NCBI GenBank assembly: GCA_963827655.1
Contig: CAWHCF010000029.1
Location: 1-64,000 of the forward strand
Length of the DNA stretch: 64,000 nucleotides
Direction of reading: 5' to 3'
Origin: an uncultured Acidobacteriota bacterium
GTDB lineage: Bacteria > Acidobacteriota > UBA6911
Shown in pieces: positions 1 through 10,277 of the stretch. The first letter of the stretch is position 1. Every line of letters begins with the position of its first letter. The notes under the pieces are model-generated. The model ran no database searches. It saw only the letters and a list, made by a program, of their open reading frames with translations, and was not told the DNA's origin. The position numbers and the translations under genes are program-made.

Positions 1-3000
1 CGCTCTTACGCTTACCTTGGGAACCTGCCGCTTTCGAAACAGTCCGCGCAAAGTGGGTTGTCTTCGATGAAAGAGGTATTCGAACTCTCTTGAAAAGGGA
101 AATATTCAGGCGGGATTACTTCTAGTGTTGGCTCTCTGCGCAATGATTGAATCATGCCCGGAAAAGGGCCTCAAGCTTCGTAACCAAGCCCTGAGGGGTC
201 GGGAGCGAGAAGAAAACGGCATTCTCGCTGGCCACGTACAGGTCATGACTTCGGCTCTCCGCTGGCTAGGCGGCGATCCTGCGGGGGGTGTAGTGGCAAG
301 TACTACAGCGATACAGATCCTAAATCGTGTCAGGCAGCACATTTACTGTCAGTAGCCTATTCACATCTAGGTATTTGCCTTTATGCCCTCGGGCCGCTGG
401 TCTGGCATTCGAGAAACATATGCGCGCCGCGATGATAAGTGAGCAAACCCGATTCGTTTCCAGCGGGCCCAAGCTTTGTCGAATTTAGCCGATGTCTCTG
501 CCGCTCGGGTCGATTTAAAGACGCACTTGAAATAGCCGAGAAGGCAATAAAGCTGGCTAGCGAGACTGAAAATAGAGACTGGGTCCACGTCTGTACAGGC
601 ACCGTAATTGGTATTTACATAAGCGTCGGTCACTATTCGAAGGCTCATCAAGCTTTGTCTGATCTAGCCTCGGCTGCCAGCCAGTTCTTTCCAAGGTACG
701 CAAAGATTCAGGCCCATTTCTGTGCCGCTTGGCTTAGCCTCGAACTGGGTGATTGGAAGGCCGCTAGCCAGGAGTTGGATAGGTTAGAGCGAACCAGATC
801 TCTAAGGTACCACCTTATGAATCTGAAATGGGTGAGGTCCTAAAGCTGAATTTGCTATCAGAGCGGAAGAACTCGAATCAGCCTCCAAAAACTGAGACAT
901 TTGTATTCCAAGCTAGTCAAGAAACGTCGGCCGTTTCAAATGTGTGTAGTGAAGCTACTTCTTGCCGAGGTACTTCTAGCGGAGGGCCAATTGGAATGTG
1001 GTCGGAAGTGTGCTCGAGATGGGCTTCGGCTTGCGAGGGTTTTGCCATCTGTCAATCTTCAAGCACAGGCACACTTGATTATGGGGAGATTTCACTTTCT
1101 AGCCGTAAGCGAGATCTTGAGTGCCACTGGAGTTCCTGAGGAGAGCGTGAAACGAGATGCTGTATCTGGAATAGCTCAAGCTCGCACTGAGTTAGAGGTA
1201 GCGCACGCATTGGCTCAGGAGGCCGACGCCGAAGAGATCCTGTGGCGGGTTGATGTTGAATTTGCCAGAGTTGCAGATTTGGATAGAAGCGCCGAAAGCT
1301 GTGTACTTCATGTAGAAAGGCACTGGATCGTCTCCCTTCAATCGAAGCTCGAGTTCCCATGAAGATGTTAGAAGTGTTTCGGCAGCTTCCAGAGCGTGAC
1401 AAAGGTCGTAGGGATTGTGAAGAGTTCATCCGTAAATATGAGGCAACCGACAAGAGTACAGAGACGTTGCAGATTGGTATGATAGGGGAAGATCATCTCC
1501 GGATCCTGTGCCGCGTTAGTCACGTCCTAAATGGGATCCGTGAATTGGATCGCCTTCTCGAAGCGCAATTATCGATCTGATTCAAGGAATCCACATTGAA
1601 AGGGCAATGGTATTTCTAAAAGATGATGACACTGGAAGGCTTGGACTGGTCAAAGCTCGAAACACTAAAGGCGAGTCCCTAGATCGAGCGGACCACATCA
1701 GTCAGAGTATTTTGAATGAGGCACATAAGCGTGGAAATCCTTTTTTAAGTGCGAATGTAATGACGGATCCGCGCGTCCGTGCTAGGAGTCGTGCTTCCGG
1801 TCAATCGGGCACACTTTTGTGCTCCTTCTTTGAAAGCGCGAGGAAGGACACTTGGGGTGCTCTATGCAGATCATCCGGATGCTGTAGGTTCTTTGAATGA
1901 GTCTGTAATTAACCTTTTCGCGGCGTCTGTAATCTGGCAGCCCTGGCAATAGATAATGCGTTGGTACATCGGGGCTTGAGCGAGGAAAATGCGGAACTTG
2001 AGTCGTCATCTTCGTCAGGCTCGTGAAGGATACACGGAGATTATCGGTAAGAGTGCTGCGATCGAAGACTACGGGAACGCATCGCACGGGCGGCTTGGTC
2101 TCCCCTGGATATCCTCATACAGGAGAAAGCGGTACTGGCAAGGAGCTAGTAGCTCTGGCGCTGCACAGGACAGGCCGTAGATCAGGGGGAAAGATTGTAC
2201 CCTTGGATTGTGGCTCTCTCTCTGAAAGTTTGATCGAAAGCGAGCTCTTTGGATACCGCAAAGGAGCGTTTACGGGCGCAATCGATAACCGTCCTGGGCT
2301 TCTGGAAATCGCGAACGGTGGCGTGGTCTTTTTGGATGAGATCTCCAACCTCTCGACTAAGCTGCAAGCAAGCTACTAAGAGCGCTGCAGGAGCGAGAAA
2401 TTCGTCGGTTAGGTGAAGCCCGTACCCGCAAGGTCGACATCCAAGTCATCGCAGCCACTAACCAAGACCTAAGGGAGGCTGTAAGGCACGGTAGATTTCG
2501 AAAAGATCTCTATTACAGGCTCAATCCTCTAGAGATTCGTGTGCCTCCAATCCGTGAACGCATGGAAGATATTCCTGTTCTGGTTCATTGGTTCCTGAAG
2601 AAAACTGCAGAGGCTGAGGATGGCAAGTGAAGTCATTCTCCGAAAGAGGCTTTTGAACTTCTGAAAGAATATAAGTTTCCAGGCAATGTTCGTCAGCTCA
2701 AGAATATGGTGCAGGGCGCGTATTATCTTTCTCCCGGTAAGATCATCGGGCTTGGTCAGCTTCCTCTAGAAATTCGTGGCGGTGTTAGCAACAGGAATTC
2801 AACTCATGGCGTCGCAATGAGCAGTCATCAGCTATATCAGCAAGATTTAAAAGGGAGGGGAACCTTCAAGGACTTGGTTAAGGAGCCGTTCCTACGACGG
2901 CAGCTTCCTTCCAGCATGGTCAGGCGAATTATTCACCGTGCTCTGACGAGACGCGGGGAAAGTATCGGGATGCGTTTCGAATCCTCGGAATCAGCGATCA

Positions 3001-3118
3001 GGAATATTCTGTTACGCTGGTCTTTCTTAAGCGACATGGGTGCTACCTAAACTTTCGCCGCTACCGGCGTACACACGGAGTGCGCGAGACAAATCCACGT
3101 CTTGATGGCATTGGCTGA
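1..3118 (+). pseudogene. Sigma-54-dependent enhancer-binding protein (TPR-like helical region + GAF + AAA+ + C-terminal domain), 5'-truncated by the window edge and split by many frameshifts
   Basis: Consecutive + strand ORF pieces: TPR-like helices (439-1362), GAF-like segment (~1480-1970), Walker A GESGTGKE, GAFTGA loop and Walker B VFLDEI (2023-2379), then LLRALQEREIRRLG, LYYRLN and FPGNVRQL in shifted frames; last frame ends at TGA 3116-3118. The frameshifts may be sequencing errors. Confidence 0.85.
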
Positions 3119-3128
3119 AGGGAATTTC

Positions 3129-5574
3129 TCAGTAGCGAGGCGGAAACTCAAGGATATTCCTGACCGTATCGTCGAGGCCAGTCTTTTCCTTAGCTAGGTC
3201 ATCTTGCTCTACGATCACCTTCTGGGCAGACTCCAGTAGAGCAAAAACTGTGGATCCGTCTTCAGGGTAAGACGCCACGCCAATCCGACACGTCACCACA
3301 ACGTTGAACCCTGGAATAGTGCCAATAATTGCGTCGCGGATCTGTTTATTCCAACGCTCGCAATAACGTGCTGCCATCTCCCTACGGGCCCCAGCCATCA
3401 GGGCAACAAACCCCTCATAACCGGACCTTACCAAGATATCTGTTTCTCTGAGTTCCTTTTTCAAAATCTCAGCTATCTCACGTAAGATAGCGTCGCTAGA
3501 GTGAATTCCGTACAATCTAAGAATTTGGGGAGATTTCGCACCTCTACGCAGAGAAGTGACAGAGGCGACCTGTTCCTAGCCGCGAAATCCATCATATGGG
3601 AACCCGCTACTGAAAGATATGTGATCCGGTGTGTTTGAGTTACGGGATCGACTATGTTTTCATGTTCCTCGGATGAGATGGTGCTGCGTTTGAGCGCCTC
3701 CGCTATGCAAGGCGACACTTGGTCAGCGAGCAATTGCAACAGGCTGAGATTTGCCTGGGAGTAGAAGACCGGCGCCTGCGCATAGAGGGATACTGTACCA
3801 AGGCAGTTTCCATCAAAGATCAAAGGTACAACCAGAGTGTCGGTCAGCGAAGTGAAATCACCTTCGACCTCCTGAAACTCCAAGGCCGGTCCTGTATTCA
3901 TAATCGGCCGGCGGTACGCAGCAACCCAGCCGCTGATTCCCTTACCCAGCCCGATACTCAGATTCTGTAGCACATCAGAGAATTTTCCGAGGACATGCGC
4001 AGCCTTTAGCGTTCCTTCTCCATTATCCAGAAAGAAAATGCACGTACTGAATGGAAGAAGCCGCTGGAGTCGGCGACCTAAGATAGGCAGGATATCCGAA
4101 AGTTCGAGATGCTTTCCGAGACTGTTGCAGAACTCGTAAAGAGCCACGAGTTCCGCTGATACTGCTGTTGGAAGAGTGGGAAGGGTAGCAGGAGAGTTGG
4201 CGGAGGAAAGGGCGCGATCGACCTTCTCAAAATAGTCTCGAAACGAGAGTTGGGGGATATTCTTCACAGCCTCTTCTGCTAGCACTTCTAATTCGTCGAT
4301 GTGTTGAACAAACAATTCTACAAGCTCAGGATCGTAGATAGCTTCCCGACTGGCTTCTGAGCAACTCAACAGAATCTTCCATGCTGAAGGGTAGCTTGTA
4401 TGGTCGAGTTGATCGAATCGCGTCAAAGGCGTCTGCAATGGAGAGTATGCGGGCCCCAAGGGGAATCTCAAGTCCTTTAAGCCCATCCGGGTAACCCGTT
4501 CCATCCCATCTCTCGTGATGAGAGCGTACGTATTTTGCCACAGGGAATGGAAACTGGATTTGCTGGAGGATCTCATGACCCGCGGGAGCATGCATCTTCA
4601 TTTTTTCGAACTCTTGCTTGCTCAAGCGGTCCAGGCTTGTTCAGGATGTAGTCATCGATTGCCAACTTTCCAATATCGTGAAGAAGAGACCCGGTTTCAA
4701 TGGCCATCAACTCCTTGGTATCAGTGACTCCACAAACCTTAGCCAAGCCCAAGGCGTATGCTCTGACTCGCCTAATGTGGCCGTAGGTAGTTTGGTCTTT
4801 TGCGTCGACCGCAAGGGCGAGGGATTCGACCGTCCTTAGATACAATTGCTCCTGCTCCTTGAGATGCTTCTCAGCTTCAATAGCTTTAGCTCGGTTTACT
4901 TTGTTAATGCCCCAAACAGCGCCAACGAACGGAGCCATCAGTAGAGGAGCGTACTCGTGGAACGCGCGAAAGAGCAAAAGGAAGGCTCCTGCACACGACG
5001 AGACCAAGAAATCGAGAAAGAGAAGGCGGTAGTTGTTATACCAAACTTGAAAGATTGTTCCTCCAAGTGAAAGTGAGATGGCAGTGGCAACAAGCAACGA
5101 ATTTGACAAGAAAAACGTTAGCGCTAAGCCAAAGGTCGGAAGCAATACGTCTTCTAGATGGTATGAGCCTGAAGGATTCAGCTTATAATACACAAGTCCA
5201 TACAGCCACACGTTAAGAGTTGCAGTGGCGATGTTAAACACGATGCGATGAACGGCTGTTTGGAGGTTTTTCTTCAGCAGCAGTGTCAGGAACGCCATGA
5301 AAAACGTATTAGCCACTATTGCTGGTGGAGTTCCATACATCATGCAGATGCTGATTACAAAAGCATCCCCGATCGTAACCAATGACCTGACGCTTGGAAG
5401 AAAAACAAAGACCGGAACGGTTACCAGCGTAATCCCTGCAAGGACTAACCAGTCATTGCCATAGCTTCCCCTAACGACGTCGACCAATGCCCGCAGGAAT
5501 AATGGAGTGGCGAGCACTACGACTGTGGAAATATAGATCCGGGCTTTTAGCGGAAGAGACCTCCAAGTAGTCAT
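3129..5574 (-). CDS. Membrane-anchored HD-GYP phosphodiesterase with GAF and degenerate GGDEF domains (frameshifted at ~4615, ~4330, ~3510)
   Basis: N-terminal multi-TM region (4573-5574), DAKD..TYGHIRRV, LLHDIGK, HHERWDGTGYPDGL (4326-4625), GAF (GKGISGWVAAYRRP), C-terminal GGDEF-like domain with RSGYEGF in place of RxGGDEF. Confidence 0.85.
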
Positions 5575-5618
5575 ATGTCGCCTGAAACCTCGAATCTGAG
5601 TCTTGCACTAATAGTCAT
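5571..5618 (-). CDS. 15-aa ORF MTISARLRFEVSGDI whose stop overlaps the HD-GYP start (ATGA), or the true N-terminus of that gene separated by a frameshift
   Basis: AAGGAGAAAC immediately precedes ATG at 5618; TGA overlaps ATG at 5574. Confidence 0.4.
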   Translation of the reverse strand: MTISARLRFEVSGDI

Positions 5619-5651
5619 GTTTCTCCTTGCCGGCTATTACTCTTTTACTAA

Positions 5652-5700
5652 CTACCACACTATACCCGAGCGTCGGGGATTTCAATTTCAGAGCGTTCAT
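5652..5700 (-). pseudogene. Degenerate copy of the 19-aa peptide gene (MN..EIEIPDAR..GIVW*)
   Basis: Same CGGAGAAACA-ATG context as the 5795 copy; GAA ATT GAA ATC and GGT ATA GTG TGG TAG are present but in different frames. Confidence 0.55.
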
Positions 5701-5735
5701 TGTTTCTCCGTGATGGTTGAGTTGCCCATTTCGCC

Positions 5736-5795
5736 TTAGTACCAGACTATGGACGGGCTTTCGCGAGTTTCAAGAATTTCGATTTCAGCATTCAT
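5736..5795 (-). CDS. Micropeptide MNAEIEILETRESPSIVWY (19 aa)
   Basis: Translated by hand; RBS GGAGAG upstream; differs from sister copies mainly by synonymous or conservative changes. Confidence 0.8.
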   Translation of the reverse strand: MNAEIEILETRESPSIVWY

Positions 5796-5835
5796 TGTTT
5801 CTCTCCGTTAAATTGACTCGTTAAGGATTCGGTTT

Positions 5836-5895
5836 CTAGTACCAGACTATCGTTGGCGTTTCGCGGGTTTCGAGGATTTCGATTTCGGTCTGCAT
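5836..5895 (-). CDS. Micropeptide MQTEIEILETRETPTIVWY (19 aa; possible upstream start at 5910 adding MEKKE)
   Basis: Translated by hand; GGAG RBS upstream; paralog of 5736-5795. Confidence 0.8.
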   Translation of the reverse strand: MQTEIEILETRETPTIVWY

Positions 5896-5964
5896 CTCTT
5901 TTTTCTCCATCTTTCGTCAGTTTTTGCGTCTTGTTGTTTTCCTTCACCTTGAATCATCACTCCG

Positions 5965-5997
5965 TCACAACCAAAGAATCGCGCTGGGATTCGACAT
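5965..5997 (-). CDS. Micropeptide MSNPSAILWL (10 aa)
   Basis: Strong RBS AAAGGAGG 4 nt upstream of ATG; C-terminal AILWL parallels TIVWY. Confidence 0.7.
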   Translation of the reverse strand: MSNPSAILWL

Positions 5998-6085
5998 GAT
6001 GCCTCCTTTCCAGATTGAGGTTGATTCGATAAGCTCCACGGACCAAGTTTCTCTCCGTTAAATTGACTCGTTAAGGATTCGGTTT

Positions 6086-6145
6086 CTAGTACCAGACTAT
6101 CGTTGGCGTTTCGCGGGTTTCGAGGATTTCGATTTCGGTATGCAT
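6086..6145 (-). CDS. Micropeptide MHTEIEILETRETPTIVWY (19 aa)
   Basis: Duplicate-unit copy of 5836-5895 with Q>H. Confidence 0.8.
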   Translation of the reverse strand: MHTEIEILETRETPTIVWY

Positions 6146-6214
6146 CTCTTTTTTCTCCATGTTTCGTCAGTTTTTACGTCTTGTTGTTTTCCTTCACCTT
6201 GAATCATCACTCCG

Positions 6215-6247
6215 TCACAACCAAAGAATCGCGCTGGGATTCGACAT
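6215..6247 (-). CDS. Micropeptide MSNPSAILWL (10 aa), second copy
   Basis: Identical to 5965-5997 with the same AAAGGAGG RBS. Confidence 0.7.
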   Translation of the reverse strand: MSNPSAILWL

Positions 6248-6325
6248 GATGCCTCCTTTCCAGATTGAGGTTGATTCGATAAGCTCCACGGACCAACTCC
6301 CTCGCGTGAGCCGCCCGAAATCGCA

Positions 6326-6358
6326 TTAAAGCCAAAGAATTGCACCTAGGTTTCTCAT
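6326..6358 (-). CDS. Micropeptide MRNLGAILWL (10 aa)
   Basis: RBS AAAGGAGAG upstream; lies outside the duplication yet keeps AILWL through different codons (GCA ATT CTT TGG CTT TAA vs GCG ATT CTT TGG TTG TGA). Confidence 0.7.
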   Translation of the reverse strand: MRNLGAILWL

Positions 6359-6755
6359 GAGTTCTCTCCTTTCAATGAGTTCTACCCTCAATTGCTTTCG
6401 TCCTGCCGGCCAAGCCTGTCCGGACTCCTCCGCGCAAAGGTACACCACTACCACCTCGGCTTGAGCAAACTTCCCAACCTAAGTTCTACTTTGTTACGAG
6501 AGTTGAGCCTTGCAGCCTCGGCGGCGCTCGTCCGCAGATCGAAGGTCATTAGTGCCAACCAACCGAGAACACCTGGCCGGTCGCCAGAAGGCAGTGGGGG
6601 AAGCTATACAAGAAGTGCTGATAAAGCACGGGTGCTACGCCTCCGGCTCTTGAGCTGTCTGGTTCGCGCTAGCAAAAAAACTGTTGAGCTCGGGTCTGGC
6701 CGTTAAGGTAACCCTTTGCCCGATAATACTTTCTTCATCAACCGCTAAAAATAGA

Positions 6756-6784
6756 AAAATACATTGGCGCCTGGTTACTGTCAA
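6756..6784 (-). promoter_or_regulatory. Candidate sigma70 promoter for the peptide array
   Basis: TTGACA-N17-TATTTT on the minus strand, in an AT-rich intergenic stretch. Confidence 0.4.
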
Positions 6785-6842
6785 ACTTAATCTAATGCCT
6801 TCTTAGAGTTCCATGGCTCGGTCGTGGGATTAGACGGGCGGG

Positions 6843-9230
6843 CTAGGGCAAATACTCCCAGAATTCCGTCCTGAGCCAACGGACCAGTCGGCGCGTAAGA
6901 AGATACGCAATCGTCCTTTTGCCGCAGCGAATTTTCCCCACTCCGGTCATTCCGCCCTTTAGTTTTCCGTCCTGGTTGGCCAGCTCGCTCTTGATCAGCA
7001 CCTTCCGTTCCGTTCCGCTCTCTACAGCCACAGGCGCGATGGTCGTTACACGAGACTCAAAAGAATCGCTCGGAAACCCGCGAACTTTCAGCGTGATCGG
7101 ATACCCAATCTGGACATCCGCAATTTCCTTCTCCGGAATCGGCATGTCGATCACAACCACTCCAAGATTCACTATTTCACAGAACGCGTCTCCTTTCTCG
7201 ATGTAGTCGCCGAGCTTGTTTTTCAGGTACGGCGTGGTGACGACACCCTCAATCGGGCTTCGCAACTTCAGGAGTTCGAGCTGCCGGCCCAGGATGCTCA
7301 GCTTCTCCTCAAGTTTTTTCACATCGGCTGCAGCCGCTTCGATCGATTCCTTGCGTGTCCCGGCCTTCAGAAGGTTGAGCTCGCTCTGGCTGGCTTCTAA
7401 CTCCTTCCGCTTGATCTGCAAGGTGCGGTCAGTATTCTCCTTCAGTACCTGCAACTCCCTCTGAGACTCCGAGAGCTCCTTCGTGCGGACCTCGTACAAC
7501 GTGCTGTCGCGGTCCAGATCGTTCCTTGAGATCAACTCGCCGTCAAATAGTTTCTGACTGCGCTCGTAAGTCTCTTTGGCATTCCGGAGCTCGGCTTCCT
7601 TCTTCGCTATCCGTTCTTGAAGCAGCTTTTCCACCTCTTCGACCCGCGCCGCATTAACGAGTTCCGTCTCCTTCGTATCGATGTTTCTTCTGGCTCGGTC
7701 CAATTCCTCGGGCCGAGCTCCGGCATTTAACAGTTTTAGAACTGCTCTTTTCGATGCGAGCTCCCCCTTGGTTTCTTCGAAGTCATCCACAAGTTGGAGA
7801 TTCTCGATCACCGCCAGAACGTCGCCGCGGTGCACTGGACTTCCTTCATCAACATTTATCTCCTTCAGGGTACCGTCGACCTGCGCGCCAATCACCAGCT
7901 GATCCTGGGAACGAATGGTGAAATCACCAGGAATTTTGAGTTCCCAGGGAAGAAAACTCCCTCCTCCGGCAATCGCCAGTATCAGGAGGAATCGCGGGGC
8001 TTTCCCTAGTCGTGCCGCTAGCGCACCCAGGAACCGTCCCTGTGCCCTGAAGGTCTCTCGACTCGCGGTTTGAACCGAGATCACGCCTACGGCCGAAATA
8101 AGAAGGATCCCCCACATCTGATAATTCTCGATCAACCACCCTCCTATACGACTGATCATCACCGCAAGGAGACCTGCCGAAAAAACGAACGAAGCGATGC
8201 CGTATCTCCAGTAAATCCTCTTTTCCCGTCCGGTCGGCTCCGGCCCGACTGACGGTTCCGTTATCGCCAACAGCCATCGTTTCAATGTGCGCTTCAGGAA
8301 ACTAAACGCTCTCGGCCTCAGATTCGGAACTTCGAGGTAATCGCTCAGGAAGTAATAACCATCGAGCCGGATTAGAGGATTAAAGTTGAACAGCGTCTGA
8401 ATGCCGGAAAAGGCAATCACGGCGAGGCATACCCGGCCGGGAAATGTCTCCGGTGACACAAGTCTCCACGCAACAACTGCTAGCGACCAGATAAAGAGCT
8501 GAACAAATCCTCCGGCAAAAGTGACCCAAAGTCGCTCCCTCTTTCTCAAAAGCCACGCATCACTCACGTTACAATAGAAGGCAGGCATGAAATAGAGCAG
8601 CAGGAACCCCATTTCATCAACCCTGCCGCCAAAATGCTTCAAGGTAAGACCGTGAGCAAACTCATGAACCGTGAGCACGGCAAAAGCACAGACCATGACA
8701 AGCGGAAGAGAGCGCAACTCCAGCAAGCTTCCGACCGATAGCACCAGAGATTCCCAGTTGAGGATCGAGATACACACGGCAACGATTATCGAGATGGAAA
8801 CGAGGGTGACGAAAGAGCCACTGAAGCAAAATCGCAATTTGCGCTCGAGTCTTGTGAGCAAGGCATCCGGGTTGACGGCCCGAATCTTGATCGAGAGAAT
8901 GCTGCCTAGAAATCCGCTTCTCTTTCTCCCAAAACTCTCCAATCTTGACCAGGCCGCCGGCTCATCCAGAAGGAGCAGCTTGCGCAGCTTGTCCACGAAG
9001 TCCTGGACTTGTGCGGCAGTGACGTCGGTTTTCTCTTCCTCTGAAACGCCCTTTGCGAGAGAGACAGAATCTTGTTTTCCGTCGAGCCGGCGCAATACCG
9101 CCGCCTGGATAGGCGCAAAGCGATAGAATTGGCGAAGGATTGGATCTTTAACGATAAGGGGAGAACCCGGTTCCGAGGACTCCGCACGAATCTCCAGATC
9201 CGACCGCAGCTTTGGAAAAGCCCGCTCCAT
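6843..9230 (-). CDS. PqqD/RRE-like domain + M50 (site-2) zinc metalloprotease + HlyD-type membrane-fusion protein fusion
   Basis: GGAGG RBS before ATG 9230; N-terminal KDP..FYRF..VLRRLDGK..FVDKLRKLLLL; HEFAH zinc motif; NFNPLIRLDGY; TM helices; lipoyl-like halves (VDEGSPVHRGDVL; LRSPIEGVV) flanking a long coiled coil. Confidence 0.85.
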   Translation of the reverse strand: MERAFPKLRSDLEIRAESSEPGSPLIVKDPILRQFYRFAPIQAAVLRRLDGKQDSVSLAKGVSEEEKTDVTAAQVQDFVDKLRKLLLLDEPAAWSRLESFGRKRSGFLGSILSIKIRAVNPDALLTRLERKLRFCFSGSFVTLVSISIIVAVCISILNWESLVLSVGSLLELRSLPLVMVCAFAVLTVHEFAHGLTLKHFGGRVDEMGFLLLYFMPAFYCNVSDAWLLRKRERLWVTFAGGFVQLFIWSLAVVAWRLVSPETFPGRVCLAVIAFSGIQTLFNFNPLIRLDGYYFLSDYLEVPNLRPRAFSFLKRTLKRWLLAITEPSVGPEPTGREKRIYWRYGIASFVFSAGLLAVMISRIGGWLIENYQMWGILLISAVGVISVQTASRETFRAQGRFLGALAARLGKAPRFLLILAIAGGGSFLPWELKIPGDFTIRSQDQLVIGAQVDGTLKEINVDEGSPVHRGDVLAVIENLQLVDDFEETKGELASKRAVLKLLNAGARPEELDRARRNIDTKETELVNAARVEEVEKLLQERIAKKEAELRNAKETYERSQKLFDGELISRNDLDRDSTLYEVRTKELSESQRELQVLKENTDRTLQIKRKELEASQSELNLLKAGTRKESIEAAAADVKKLEEKLSILGRQLELLKLRSPIEGVVTTPYLKNKLGDYIEKGDAFCEIVNLGVVVIDMPIPEKEIADVQIGYPITLKVRGFPSDSFESRVTTIAPVAVESGTERKVLIKSELANQDGKLKGGMTGVGKIRCGKRTIAYLLTRRLVRWLRTEFWEYLP

Positions 9231-9442
9231 CCCAGGCCTCCATTGCGGGGGAAACTTACGACCCGGCGGGAATAGAGTTTTGAACGATGGAATGATATCG
9301 ACAGCCTCATAGAATTGCAATAGCGAGAGTTAGCGCAATAATCGCCACCAGCGGAGTTTCTTCAATTGACGGAGTTTTCAGCCCTCGCTATAATCGCCTG
9401 TCCAAATCGTAACGTGGAGCTAAGCGCAAGAACTCAAAGGAG

Positions 9443-10277
9443 ATGGGCATGTTTTCAAAAAAGGCTTTTGCACTTCCGCTGATCGCAATGTTGCTTGGCC
9501 TGTCCGCTTGCAGCAAGAAAGCAGAGGATGCGCCGGCGCCTGATTCGGCCCCAGCTGCCTCAAAGCCCGTCTTCAAACCCGGAGAAATGGTTTTGATTCC
9601 CGCCGGCGAGTTCATTTTCGGCGCAAATGACAAGGATGCGCCGGCCGTGGGCCCGGAGCAGAAAATCACGCTGCCCGCTTACTGGATCGACAAATACGAA
9701 GTTACCAACGGCGAGTATCTGGATTTCTCCATCAAGGGCGGCTATGCGAGTGAAGGCAAGAATTGGCGACTTTTCTTCACGCCCCAAAAGGTCAACTACC
9801 CGGTTGTGAATATCACCTGGAACGATTGTCTTGAGTATTGCAAATGGGCGGGAAAGAGGCTTGCCACAGAAGAAGAGTGGGAAAAAGCGGCTCGCGGTTC
9901 CGATGGGAAACGTTATCCGTGGGGAGACAAGTGGGAAGGGGGTCGCAGCAACACTTTCGAAGCCGGCGCTACGCGCGCCCGCCGAGGTAAATCAGTTTGA
10001 TGACGTCAGTCAATACGGGGTGCATGATCTGTTGGGTAACGTCCAGGAATGGACTGGAAGTTGGTATAAGGCCTACAAGGGAAACACCAAACCCAATCCC
10101 GACTTTGGCGAAAAGTATCGTGTCCTGCGGGGTTTGTCTTCAAATTTTTATGGCAGCCGAGGACATGTCTGGGACCGGTCGGCCTATCTGCCCAAGGCTC
10201 TTTATGGCTACGGCTGTCGCTGCGCGAAAGATGCTACCGCGGAAGAAGCCGCGAAAGCAGGCAGATCGGGTAGCTGA
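9443..10277 (+). CDS. Formylglycine-generating enzyme (SUMF1/FGE-sulfatase) family lipoprotein, one frameshift near 9970
   Basis: Lipobox LSAC; IDKYEVTN, PVVNITW, RLATEEEWEKAARG, YGVHDLLGNVQEW, GCRCAKD. Confidence 0.85.

Follow-up and report, generated by a model that had tools for sequence, protein, structure and literature searches.

What is a run of micro-genes, whose products end in a few hydrophobic residues around a tryptophan, doing between a protease gene and the gene of a membrane-bound cyclic di-GMP (c-di-GMP) enzyme? The question is raised by the start of contig CAWHCF010000029.1 (C29 below) of an uncultured soil Acidobacteriota bacterium, assembly GCA_963827655.1, a genome of 8.18 Mb in 53 contigs; the stretch analysed, its first 64,000 nucleotides (nt), is called the window here. 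A sequence-only reading of this DNA had proposed a peptide-signalling circuit. Its parts would be a fusion of a RiPP (peptide made on the ribosome and modified after translation) recognition element, or RRE, with a site-2 (M50) protease and an HlyD-type adaptor (the fusion, below); an array of micro-genes; a membrane HD-GYP enzyme (the sensor, by its proposed role); and a convergent sigma54 activator. After comparing the locus with its relatives, we find that it looks like an undescribed peptide-signalling system and a distinct, derived variant of a wider module, as judged from its genes and their conservation.

On the minus strand between 5736 and 6358 the window holds six intact micro open reading frames (micro-ORFs), three of type A and three of type B, each with a GGAG-type ribosome-binding site (RBS; Table 1). 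Together with a seventh, decayed copy, they bear out the earlier count of at least six tiny, RBS-bearing ORFs with tryptophan-containing ends. One A and one B gene are present twice because of a 250-bp tandem duplication (99% identity). The B peptides at 6086-6145 and 5836-5895 read M[H/Q]TEIEILETRETPTIVWY, and for the second of these an in-frame ATG further upstream, at 5910, would make a product of 24 residues. Stop-to-stop frames ending in [IL][VL]W[YL] number 14 in all six frames of the 8.18-Mb genome, and six of the 14 lie in the array. One of the window's B peptides, searched against NCBIfam and Pfam, matched no family.

Table 1. Features of the locus and its immediate neighbourhood, in window coordinates.
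Feature	Position	Strand	Evidence
TPR (MalT-like)-GAF-sigma54 AAA+ activator, convergent on the sensor, N-terminus lost at the contig start	98..3073	plus	Pfam, tblastn
Membrane sensor enzyme: about 8 transmembrane helices (ECF S-component-like fold in the model), HD-GYP, GAF, degenerate GGDEF	3129..5574	minus	Pfam, tblastn, AlphaFold2 (AF2)
Seventh peptide copy, B type, decayed, frameshifted	~5652..5700	minus	read from sequence
B peptide MNAEIEILETRESPSIVWY	5736..5795	minus	sequence, RBS, comparison of cores
B peptide MQTEIEILETRETPTIVWY	5836..5895	minus	sequence, RBS
A peptide MSNPSAILWL, copy in duplicated unit	5965..5997	minus	sequence, RBS, duplication
B peptide MHTEIEILETRETPTIVWY	6086..6145	minus	sequence, RBS, comparison of cores
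A peptide MSNPSAILWL	6215..6247	minus	sequence, RBS, genome-wide end-motif scan
A peptide MRNLGAILWL	6326..6358	minus	sequence, RBS, genome-wide end-motif scan
Structured leader RNA, diverged copy: P0, UUCUCGAAUA loop, P1, P2, variable hairpin P3	6512..6625	minus	covariance model R1
Sigma70-type promoter TTGACA-17-TATTTT for leader and array	6756..6784	minus	10/12 consensus matches
RRE - site-2 (M50) protease - HlyD-type adaptor fusion, 795 residues, intact	6843..9230	minus	Pfam, NCBIfam, AF2 fold, homologue alignment
FGE-sulfatase-family lipoprotein gene, divergent, frameshift near 9966	9443..10268	plus	Pfam, tblastn, synteny

Both peptide types recur in related genomes of one Acidobacteriota family. 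Family A follows M-x(0-4)-[AG]-I-L-W-[LF] and has 8-10 residues, the shortest member being MASAILWL. Family B, with 19-22 residues and one to five tandem copies, reads MQTEIEILE-x-RE-x-P and then x-[IV]-[ILV]-W with one to six further residues. All array copies across the loci have Shine-Dalgarno sites. Among 23 distinct B genes, the opening 14 codons vary at 3, 3 and 13 sites at codon positions 1, 2 and 3, respectively, and in the last five A codons the pairwise codon differences were 772 synonymous against 239 non-synonymous. Substitutions concentrate at third codon positions, as they do in translated genes, and the micro-ORFs are clearly under purifying selection. A degenerate DNA pattern for EIE[IV]LExR[DE] matched in 31 of the 51 genomes of the window's family; in all the multi-match genomes listed the matches stood in tandem at a single site, and the reversed-pattern control gave none. 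The B leader is nearly invariant and its core varies between species, down to the last residue (Y, T, A, L, M, G and more), and the A ending is nearly family-wide. An invariant leader with a variable core is expected of signals, and equally of diversifying natural products.

Genes this short could also act in cis. Some or all of the micro-ORFs, above all those of 8-10 codons in family A, might be leader peptides at which stalling at I-L-W-x-stop, or the supply of Trp-tRNA, controls expression of the peptide and sensor genes downstream. The A ORFs are indeed sized like known arrest peptides; their C-terminal end is conserved, the one Trp codon, next to the stop, never varies, and they lie in a long structured 5' leader ahead of other genes. 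Their stop codon, however, is free to vary (TAG in 10, TAA in 8, TGA in 10), as is the distance from A to the next gene. Family B shares the I-L-W end yet carries a leader like that of a protease cargo, and its tandem copies, up to five of them, are hard to fit with attenuators. We consider a purely regulatory role for the micro-ORFs improbable.

The linkage of array, fusion and sensor was assessed in 62 loci from species-representative genomes, 39 of them with a close fusion orthologue (at least 48% identity), to which the window was added. Where at least 700 nt follow the fusion (33 related loci and the window), A is present in 32 of 34 and A or B in 33 of 34; where at least 1300 nt follow it (n = 25), A is found in 23 loci, B likewise in 23, and the two together in 22. 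The sequence-only reading had proposed a co-occurrence test of this kind, and with at least 2500 nt of downstream sequence (23 related loci and the window) array and sensor are both present in 23 of 24 fusion loci, and the remaining one (L050) has neither. In the genome of that locus (G210) a B gene and the sensor stand together on a different contig from the fusion. At L034/L077 (G404:C15) the N- and C-terminal parts of the fusion lie apart, with several unrelated ORFs between them, and the array is directly upstream of the sensor. These two cases indicate that the array travels with the sensor. In loci with both, 75-442 nt separate the last peptide from the sensor start. Many short-read contigs stop about 700 nt past the fusion, as if the array breaks assemblies. 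Upstream of the fusion, the order of genes for a TPR protein, a CCA/poly(A) polymerase and an RlmI-like methyltransferase is conserved; since these are housekeeping genes, this order reflects shared descent.

The fusion itself had been described correctly from its sequence as RRE plus M50 plus HlyD, and predicted folds, invariant catalytic motifs and an adaptor match in Pfam agree on this. It starts at the ATG at 9230, as do its homologues; a TTG start at 9320, which would give an 825-residue frame, was rejected as an over-extension. The adaptor makes up the C-terminal half (PF16576, 3.7e-23) and matched EmrA, MacA and HlyD adaptors, with EmrA 4tko at 2.2e-23. For the N-terminal half the top NCBIfam family was the daptide intramembrane protease NF041824 (217 bits over residues 47-410, cut-off 300), and YydH/LiaK, NF058609, matched weakly (55 bits, cut-off 225). 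An AF2 model of residues 31-465 (pLDDT 82.9) had site-2 proteases 3b4r and 8vjl as its best folds, and its first approximately 88 residues resembled PqqD (5sxy) and the lasso-peptide RREs 5v1u and 6jx3 at target-normalised TM-scores of 0.62-0.75; Foldseek E-values for the whole query were weak (4.6e-3 to 0.3). HExxH and NxxPxxxxDG (H219, E220, H223, N312, P315, D320, G321) are unchanged in 20 of 20 aligned homologues. Pfam PF02163 is precomputed on some homologues, and the window protein itself has no PF02163 match.

Relatives of the fusion number more than 1651 in the database. Its 120 best matches span the full length at 53-96% identity, and wherever a source name is given it is Acidobacteria. 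Full-length orthologues of at least 50% identity were found in the window's family alone (in all six genomes sampled in addition to the window's own). In a phylum sample of 401 genomes, 65 have more distant matches, a count that takes in the window's genome and two genomes flagged unpublished (G024, G152).

The distant homologues (24-45% identity, several phyla) offer a view of what such a protease may act on, as they adjoin small ORFs with a ...[LV]E[IV]EELEERIAP leader. The cores behind this leader vary, from GYEGQPGNQG-type repeats and GSK repeats to a core of eight residues; seven of these cargo ORFs, searched against Pfam and NCBIfam, matched no family. The B leader and the distant cargo leader both fit E-I-E-x-L-E-x-R-x-x-P, and hhalign brought their prolines into register over 16 columns (44% identity, P 4.7e-4, probability 33%). 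Because its leader resembles the cargo leaders beside distant fusion homologues, we read B, with moderate confidence, as a cargo with a core reduced to about five residues. This likeness lends support to a role of the peptides as protease substrates, an idea already part of the sequence-only reading. Two Aminicenantes contigs (L044:9446-9667, minus strand, and L045), with three to four tandem cargo ORFs made up of an RIAP-type leader and an 8-residue hydrophobic core, provide an independent example of a core this short.

Elsewhere in the genome that holds the window, the best matches to a hidden Markov model (HMM) of the distant leaders adjoin a second, distant fusion copy on contig C38. Near this copy (C38:16857-18971), at about C38:21020-21470, are frames of repeated leader-like units (EIELSIEELEEVIAPG...); this is the classical form of the protease-adaptor module in the same genome. 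Compared with distant cargo modules, the window locus stands out by its core of about five residues, its leaderless A ORFs, its sigma70-type promoter, its structured leader RNA and its fixed HD-GYP neighbour. No partner gene is common to all the neighbourhoods of distant fusion homologues, and the window's conserved block contains no extra HlyD or STAS genes. In a Verrucomicrobiota contig (L036:9300-12145), genes for class I/II and class III aminotransferases come after a distant fusion homologue, which recalls the daptide aminotransferase step.

Such neighbours bring up the reading that the peptides are a secreted or membrane-targeted product, a minimal RiPP-like one, perhaps modified by an unlinked enzyme or by the neighbouring periplasmic FGE-family lipoprotein, and that the HD-GYP enzyme and the activator just regulate it. 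The pairing of an RRE with a site-2 protease is otherwise known from a RiPP pathway; RiPP precursors typically occur in tandem, with a leader that is invariant and a core that is not; and possible tailoring genes, for aminotransferases, a 2OG oxygenase, a lysyl oxidase and a methyltransferase, adjoin distant homologues. The FGE gene can be cited on either side. It is conserved beside the fusion in 35 loci, but it has no match beside the distant homologues and keeps to the fusion/housekeeping side where the array has moved. Its presence also narrows the earlier statement that no modifying enzyme is in view, which holds within positions 1-9230 but overlooks this conserved gene just beyond. No modifying enzyme moves along with the array, the array has a closer tie with the sensor than with the protease, and a five-residue unmodified core would be very small for an antibiotic or a structural role. 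We regard a secreted product as unlikely, and return to the signal reading and its candidate receiver.

Sensor orthologues are single ORFs of 803-828 residues, with HD_5 recognised at 3.5e-36. Both HDIGK and HHERWDGxGYP can be read in the frames of the window gene, and six of six orthologues have retained these motifs. A GGDEF domain is recognised, and its GG[DE]EF site has no match in six of six orthologues, the window reading SGYEGF. In the window the gene is split over frames -2, -3, -1 and -3, with at least three frameshifts, near 4625, 4340 and 3525. The earlier description of a multi-transmembrane HD-GYP-GAF protein thus stands as to domains, but it had missed the frameshifts that split the gene and the degenerate GGDEF end. 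An AF2 model of sensor residues 1-260 (pLDDT 85.5) is a tight bundle with very short loops. Aligned by VIA-align with 48,161 representative chains, the modelled membrane domain had ECF S-components as all of its top 15 matches (Z 9.1-12.8), among them CbiM, RibU, FolT, BioY, ThiT, PanT and BtuM, with root-mean-square deviations of 3.2-4.1 A over 150-186 aligned residues. The next unrelated rows scored Z 7.7 or lower, and Foldseek E-values were weak (0.2-0.9). S-components are membrane-embedded binders of small ligands, and because of this the modelled domain would fit a ligand-sensing role, without proving one. Superposable as the model is on S-components, the sensor domain shares no detectable sequence similarity with them, the only family signal being a weak Pfam MASE9 match in one orthologue. 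Unlike ECF transporters, the sensor comes without ECF T or A components, and its membrane domain is fused to signalling domains.

Two small elements lie just ahead of the sensor. A TTGCCGATA box is conserved 30-45 nt upstream of its start in at least 12 loci (for example L039, L012 and L062), with a diverged counterpart near 5625-5640 in the window; it could be the -10 region of an internal promoter or a regulatory site. A 15-codon ORF, MTISARLRFEVSGDI, at 5571-5618 (minus) has a stop codon that overlaps the sensor ATG (ATATGA).

The activator was reported earlier as a TPR-GAF-AAA+ protein convergent on the rest. Its domains and orientation are as claimed, but the gene is fragmented and cut by the contig start. 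By tblastn it runs through frames 2/1/3/2/1/3/2, at least six frame changes, with orthologue residue 141 at window position 98; Pfam recognised TPR_19 and Sigma54_activat in its fragments, one of which holds GAFTGA. Orthologues are intact where complete, with open frames of 1124-1274 residues and a MalT-like TPR-GAF-sigma54 AAA+ architecture. As to RRNPP traits, the block offers just generic or MalT-like TPR matches in the activator (no RRNPP comparison was made), and Opp genes were not seen in it.

Expression of the array appears to be set by elements of its own. TTGACA is found in 31 of 32 related intergenic regions, about 60-330 nt past the fusion stop, followed 17-18 nt on by a (TG)nTAnnnT box. 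Downstream lies a leader RNA of about 115 nt, in which a P0 helix of variable sequence is followed by the unpaired UUCUCGAAUA, P1 (GCUCUCUCA/UGAGCAAGAGC), P2 (UUG/CAA) and P3, a long hairpin whose sequence is completely different between species. The structure comes from single-sequence folds and a consensus drawn by hand; most of 20 copies folded singly share the architecture, with z from +0.35 (window) to -4.4. The covariance model built on it, R1, gave 39.8 bits in the window; of 31 related loci matched (L002:9616-9732 and L028:9531-9650 among them), 29 scored 49-104 bits and the other two about 21 bits. Across 32 copies, in an alignment that is fitted to the model and leans towards it, 81.5% of cells pair, against 30-43% with the partners slid; 10 pairs changed on both sides (a number reached by 1 of 500 shuffles), and the covariation score was 0.132 (reached by 0 of 500). 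RNAalifold on plain MAFFT alignments of the leader found almost no structure.

Exactly one copy of R1 is present in 33 of the 51 family genomes, and in the three where the position of the fusion is known it lies right beside it. The model found no copy beside distant fusion homologues, nor in four array-bearing close loci (L004, L014, L024, L034). Rfam 15 gave no match to the leader RNA at E up to 1 in the window, and chance-level matches only in two well-conserved copies. RNA-library contigs cover 6225-6494 and 6549-6726, which does not show transcription because the library may hold DNA. At L002:10165-10233, between the B gene and the sensor, there is a near-perfect palindromic hairpin with a chance 'microRNA' match; it could be a terminator or an attenuator that splits peptide from sensor expression.

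Gene order, domain content, and the conservation of the peptides and the selection on them are the observed part of our account. As to function, the account that we tentatively favour, giving it a little under an even chance, is that a widespread module, a leader-guided protease fused to an export adaptor, exists here in a pared-down form particular to this lineage, and that the peptides are the signal. The 14-residue B leader (MQTEIEILExRExP) would bind the fusion's cytoplasmic RRE as a beta-strand. Cleavage by the site-2 protease, at the conserved Pro or close to it, would free a hydrophobic pentapeptide x-I-[ILV]-W-x (TIVWY and SIVWY in the window). The HlyD-type adaptor that is part of the fusion would take the pentapeptide from the cytoplasm across the periplasm, and the leaderless A peptides (...[AG]ILWL) might feed the same pool independently of the RRE. 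The released peptides would act as the signal, with the S-component-like membrane domain of the HD-GYP enzyme as the first candidate reader, altering c-di-GMP hydrolysis; the TPR-GAF-sigma54 activator would be a second candidate reader, or a regulator. The dedicated sigma70-type promoter would start transcription, and the structured leader RNA would probably tune expression.

We find it doubtful that the locus goes as far as a self-contained pheromone system of a diderm phylum. There, a site-2 protease that reads the leader and doubles as its own export conduit would cut 19-residue precursors to unmodified Trp pentapeptides, which would be read by an S-component-like domain wired to HD-GYP, so that signalling leads into c-di-GMP turnover; the leader RNA would close the loop, and species-specific B cores and the family-wide A peptides would serve as private and public channels.

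Several points weigh against the signal account. Adjacency, from which alone we infer sensing, could equally mean regulation, and the fold match is open to the objection that helical-bundle Z scores below about 13 may reflect a mere common arrangement. The cleavage and export steps are likewise our inferences, and the route of the leaderless A peptides into the pool is guesswork. The conserved block has neither a pump nor an outer-membrane factor, and it lacks a peptide importer and a modifying enzyme (the pump and the outer-membrane factor were not searched for genome-wide). B is not picked up when all six frames of its own genome are searched with an HMM of the distant leaders (2.5 bits, E 3.9e3), so that the homology of the leaders hangs on one modest profile comparison and on gene context. 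A consensus scan of 37 related loci and the window found no conserved match to a sigma54 -24/-12 promoter, just five scattered single matches among the 38 loci, none at a conserved position, and a looser scan of the array-to-sensor spacers found nothing conserved. Part of the synteny is, as far as the sampled loci tell, shared descent, because all orthologous loci come from one taxonomic family. Finally, the sensor, the activator and the FGE gene are frameshifted in the assembly, and the fusion, the peptides and the housekeeping genes are intact; if the frameshifts are real, the peptides have been retained here without their proposed reader.

The sensing arm of this copy is either broken or mis-assembled. 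In the first case the locus would be a decaying remnant, with the sensor, activator and FGE genes as true pseudogenes and the intact parts on their way out. Three genes carry at least ten frame changes, against none in the 2.4-kb fusion and 3.7 kb of housekeeping genes; the contig's opening 10 kb has a coverage of 0.46 by open frames of at least 250 residues, 18th from the bottom among 790 segments of the genome (genome median 0.80); and the window's leader RNA is the weakest of the clear matches. The details of the breaks speak for the second case: two of the three sensor shift sites examined are a single extra base in a C run, the region lies at a contig end, and a metagenome contig 96.9% identical to the window has an intact FGE gene with no frameshift. 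Sensors are broken in several other assemblies of orthologous loci as well, which indicates assembly error. The metagenome matches, short near-identical contigs, resolved the FGE shift and left the sensor shifts undecided, and public contigs over the region, 90-99% identical and from relatives, are too divergent to decide the frameshifts. Decay in this genome is a serious possibility to our minds, though not quite the one to expect.

Among known systems, the closest characterised relative of the fusion is the daptide leader peptidase MpaP, an intramembrane enzyme reported to take off the leader in an RRE-dependent manner (Ren et al. 2023, PMC10036551). Like MpaP/DapP, the fusion has an N-terminal RRE followed by an M50/site-2 core, with fold matches to PqqD, TbiB1 and site-2 proteases, and small precursor genes nearby have a conserved leader with a Pro next to the core. 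In contrast to the daptide proteases, it stays below the cut-off of their family and carries the C-terminal HlyD-type adaptor; the window-type peptides have no conserved C-terminal Thr, their cores have about five residues, and the host is a diderm. Pfam recognised none of the daptide enzymes (oxidative decarboxylase, aminotransferase, dehydrogenase, methyltransferase) in the conserved block. The YydH/LiaK epipeptide protease is similar in being a membrane HExxH protease that acts on a small peptide, but the window block has neither a radical-SAM epimerase nor an ABC exporter.

The proposed output invites comparison with signalling systems. The small hydrophobic peptides of Firmicutes (SHP, ComS, sex pheromones) are C-terminal peptides matured by M50 proteases along the Eep/PptAB route (PMC7564271, PMC5167397, PMC4173765). 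The likeness lies in tiny hydrophobic peptides from the C-terminal end of short precursors, site-2 (M50) maturation, dedicated export and a TPR regulator nearby. The Firmicutes route uses ABC-transporter export, and its receptors are cytosolic RRNPP proteins reached after Opp import; to our knowledge it involves no RRE or leader recognition. Here, by contrast, the protease is fused to a periplasmic adaptor, and its neighbour is a membrane c-di-GMP enzyme. In DSF/RpfG signalling a diffusible hydrophobic signal is coupled to c-di-GMP hydrolysis by HD-GYP, but that signal is a fatty acid and a separate histidine kinase senses it, whereas here HD-GYP is fused directly to a membrane domain and the ligand proposed is a peptide. 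In the full-text literature (supplementary tables, for example those of daptide RRE families, lay outside the scope) we found no protease-HlyD fusion, five-residue cores, 8-codon leaderless companions, dedicated leader RNA or fixed HD-GYP neighbour.

Ribosomal peptide signals are textbook knowledge in Gram-positive bacteria and, as far as we know, almost unheard of in diderms; for the Acidobacteria, a dominant soil phylum, we know of nothing on cell-cell signalling. The locus provides a compact, testable signalling candidate, with genes of 8-19 codons, one protein that could recognise, cut and export their products, and an adjoining enzyme whose c-di-GMP output is easily measured. It also suggests how far the cargo of a leader-guided protease can shrink, to five residues, and adds a candidate RNA motif without an Rfam match. 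For annotation it holds a warning, as gene callers do not report genes nearly as small as its central ones.

Two further observations concern composition and distribution. The G+C content of array, sensor and activator is below that of the adjoining fusion and housekeeping genes in six of six other loci (L023, L012, L062, L014, L039, L002), in L023 for instance 0.48-0.54 against 0.68-0.71, which suggests that the block has been exchanged among family members or has a compositional constraint of its own. Lastly, a short contig labelled Deltaproteobacteria (L029) carries a 56%-identical fusion, the leader RNA, and two A and two B peptides; given this full acidobacterial signature set, it is probably mis-binned.

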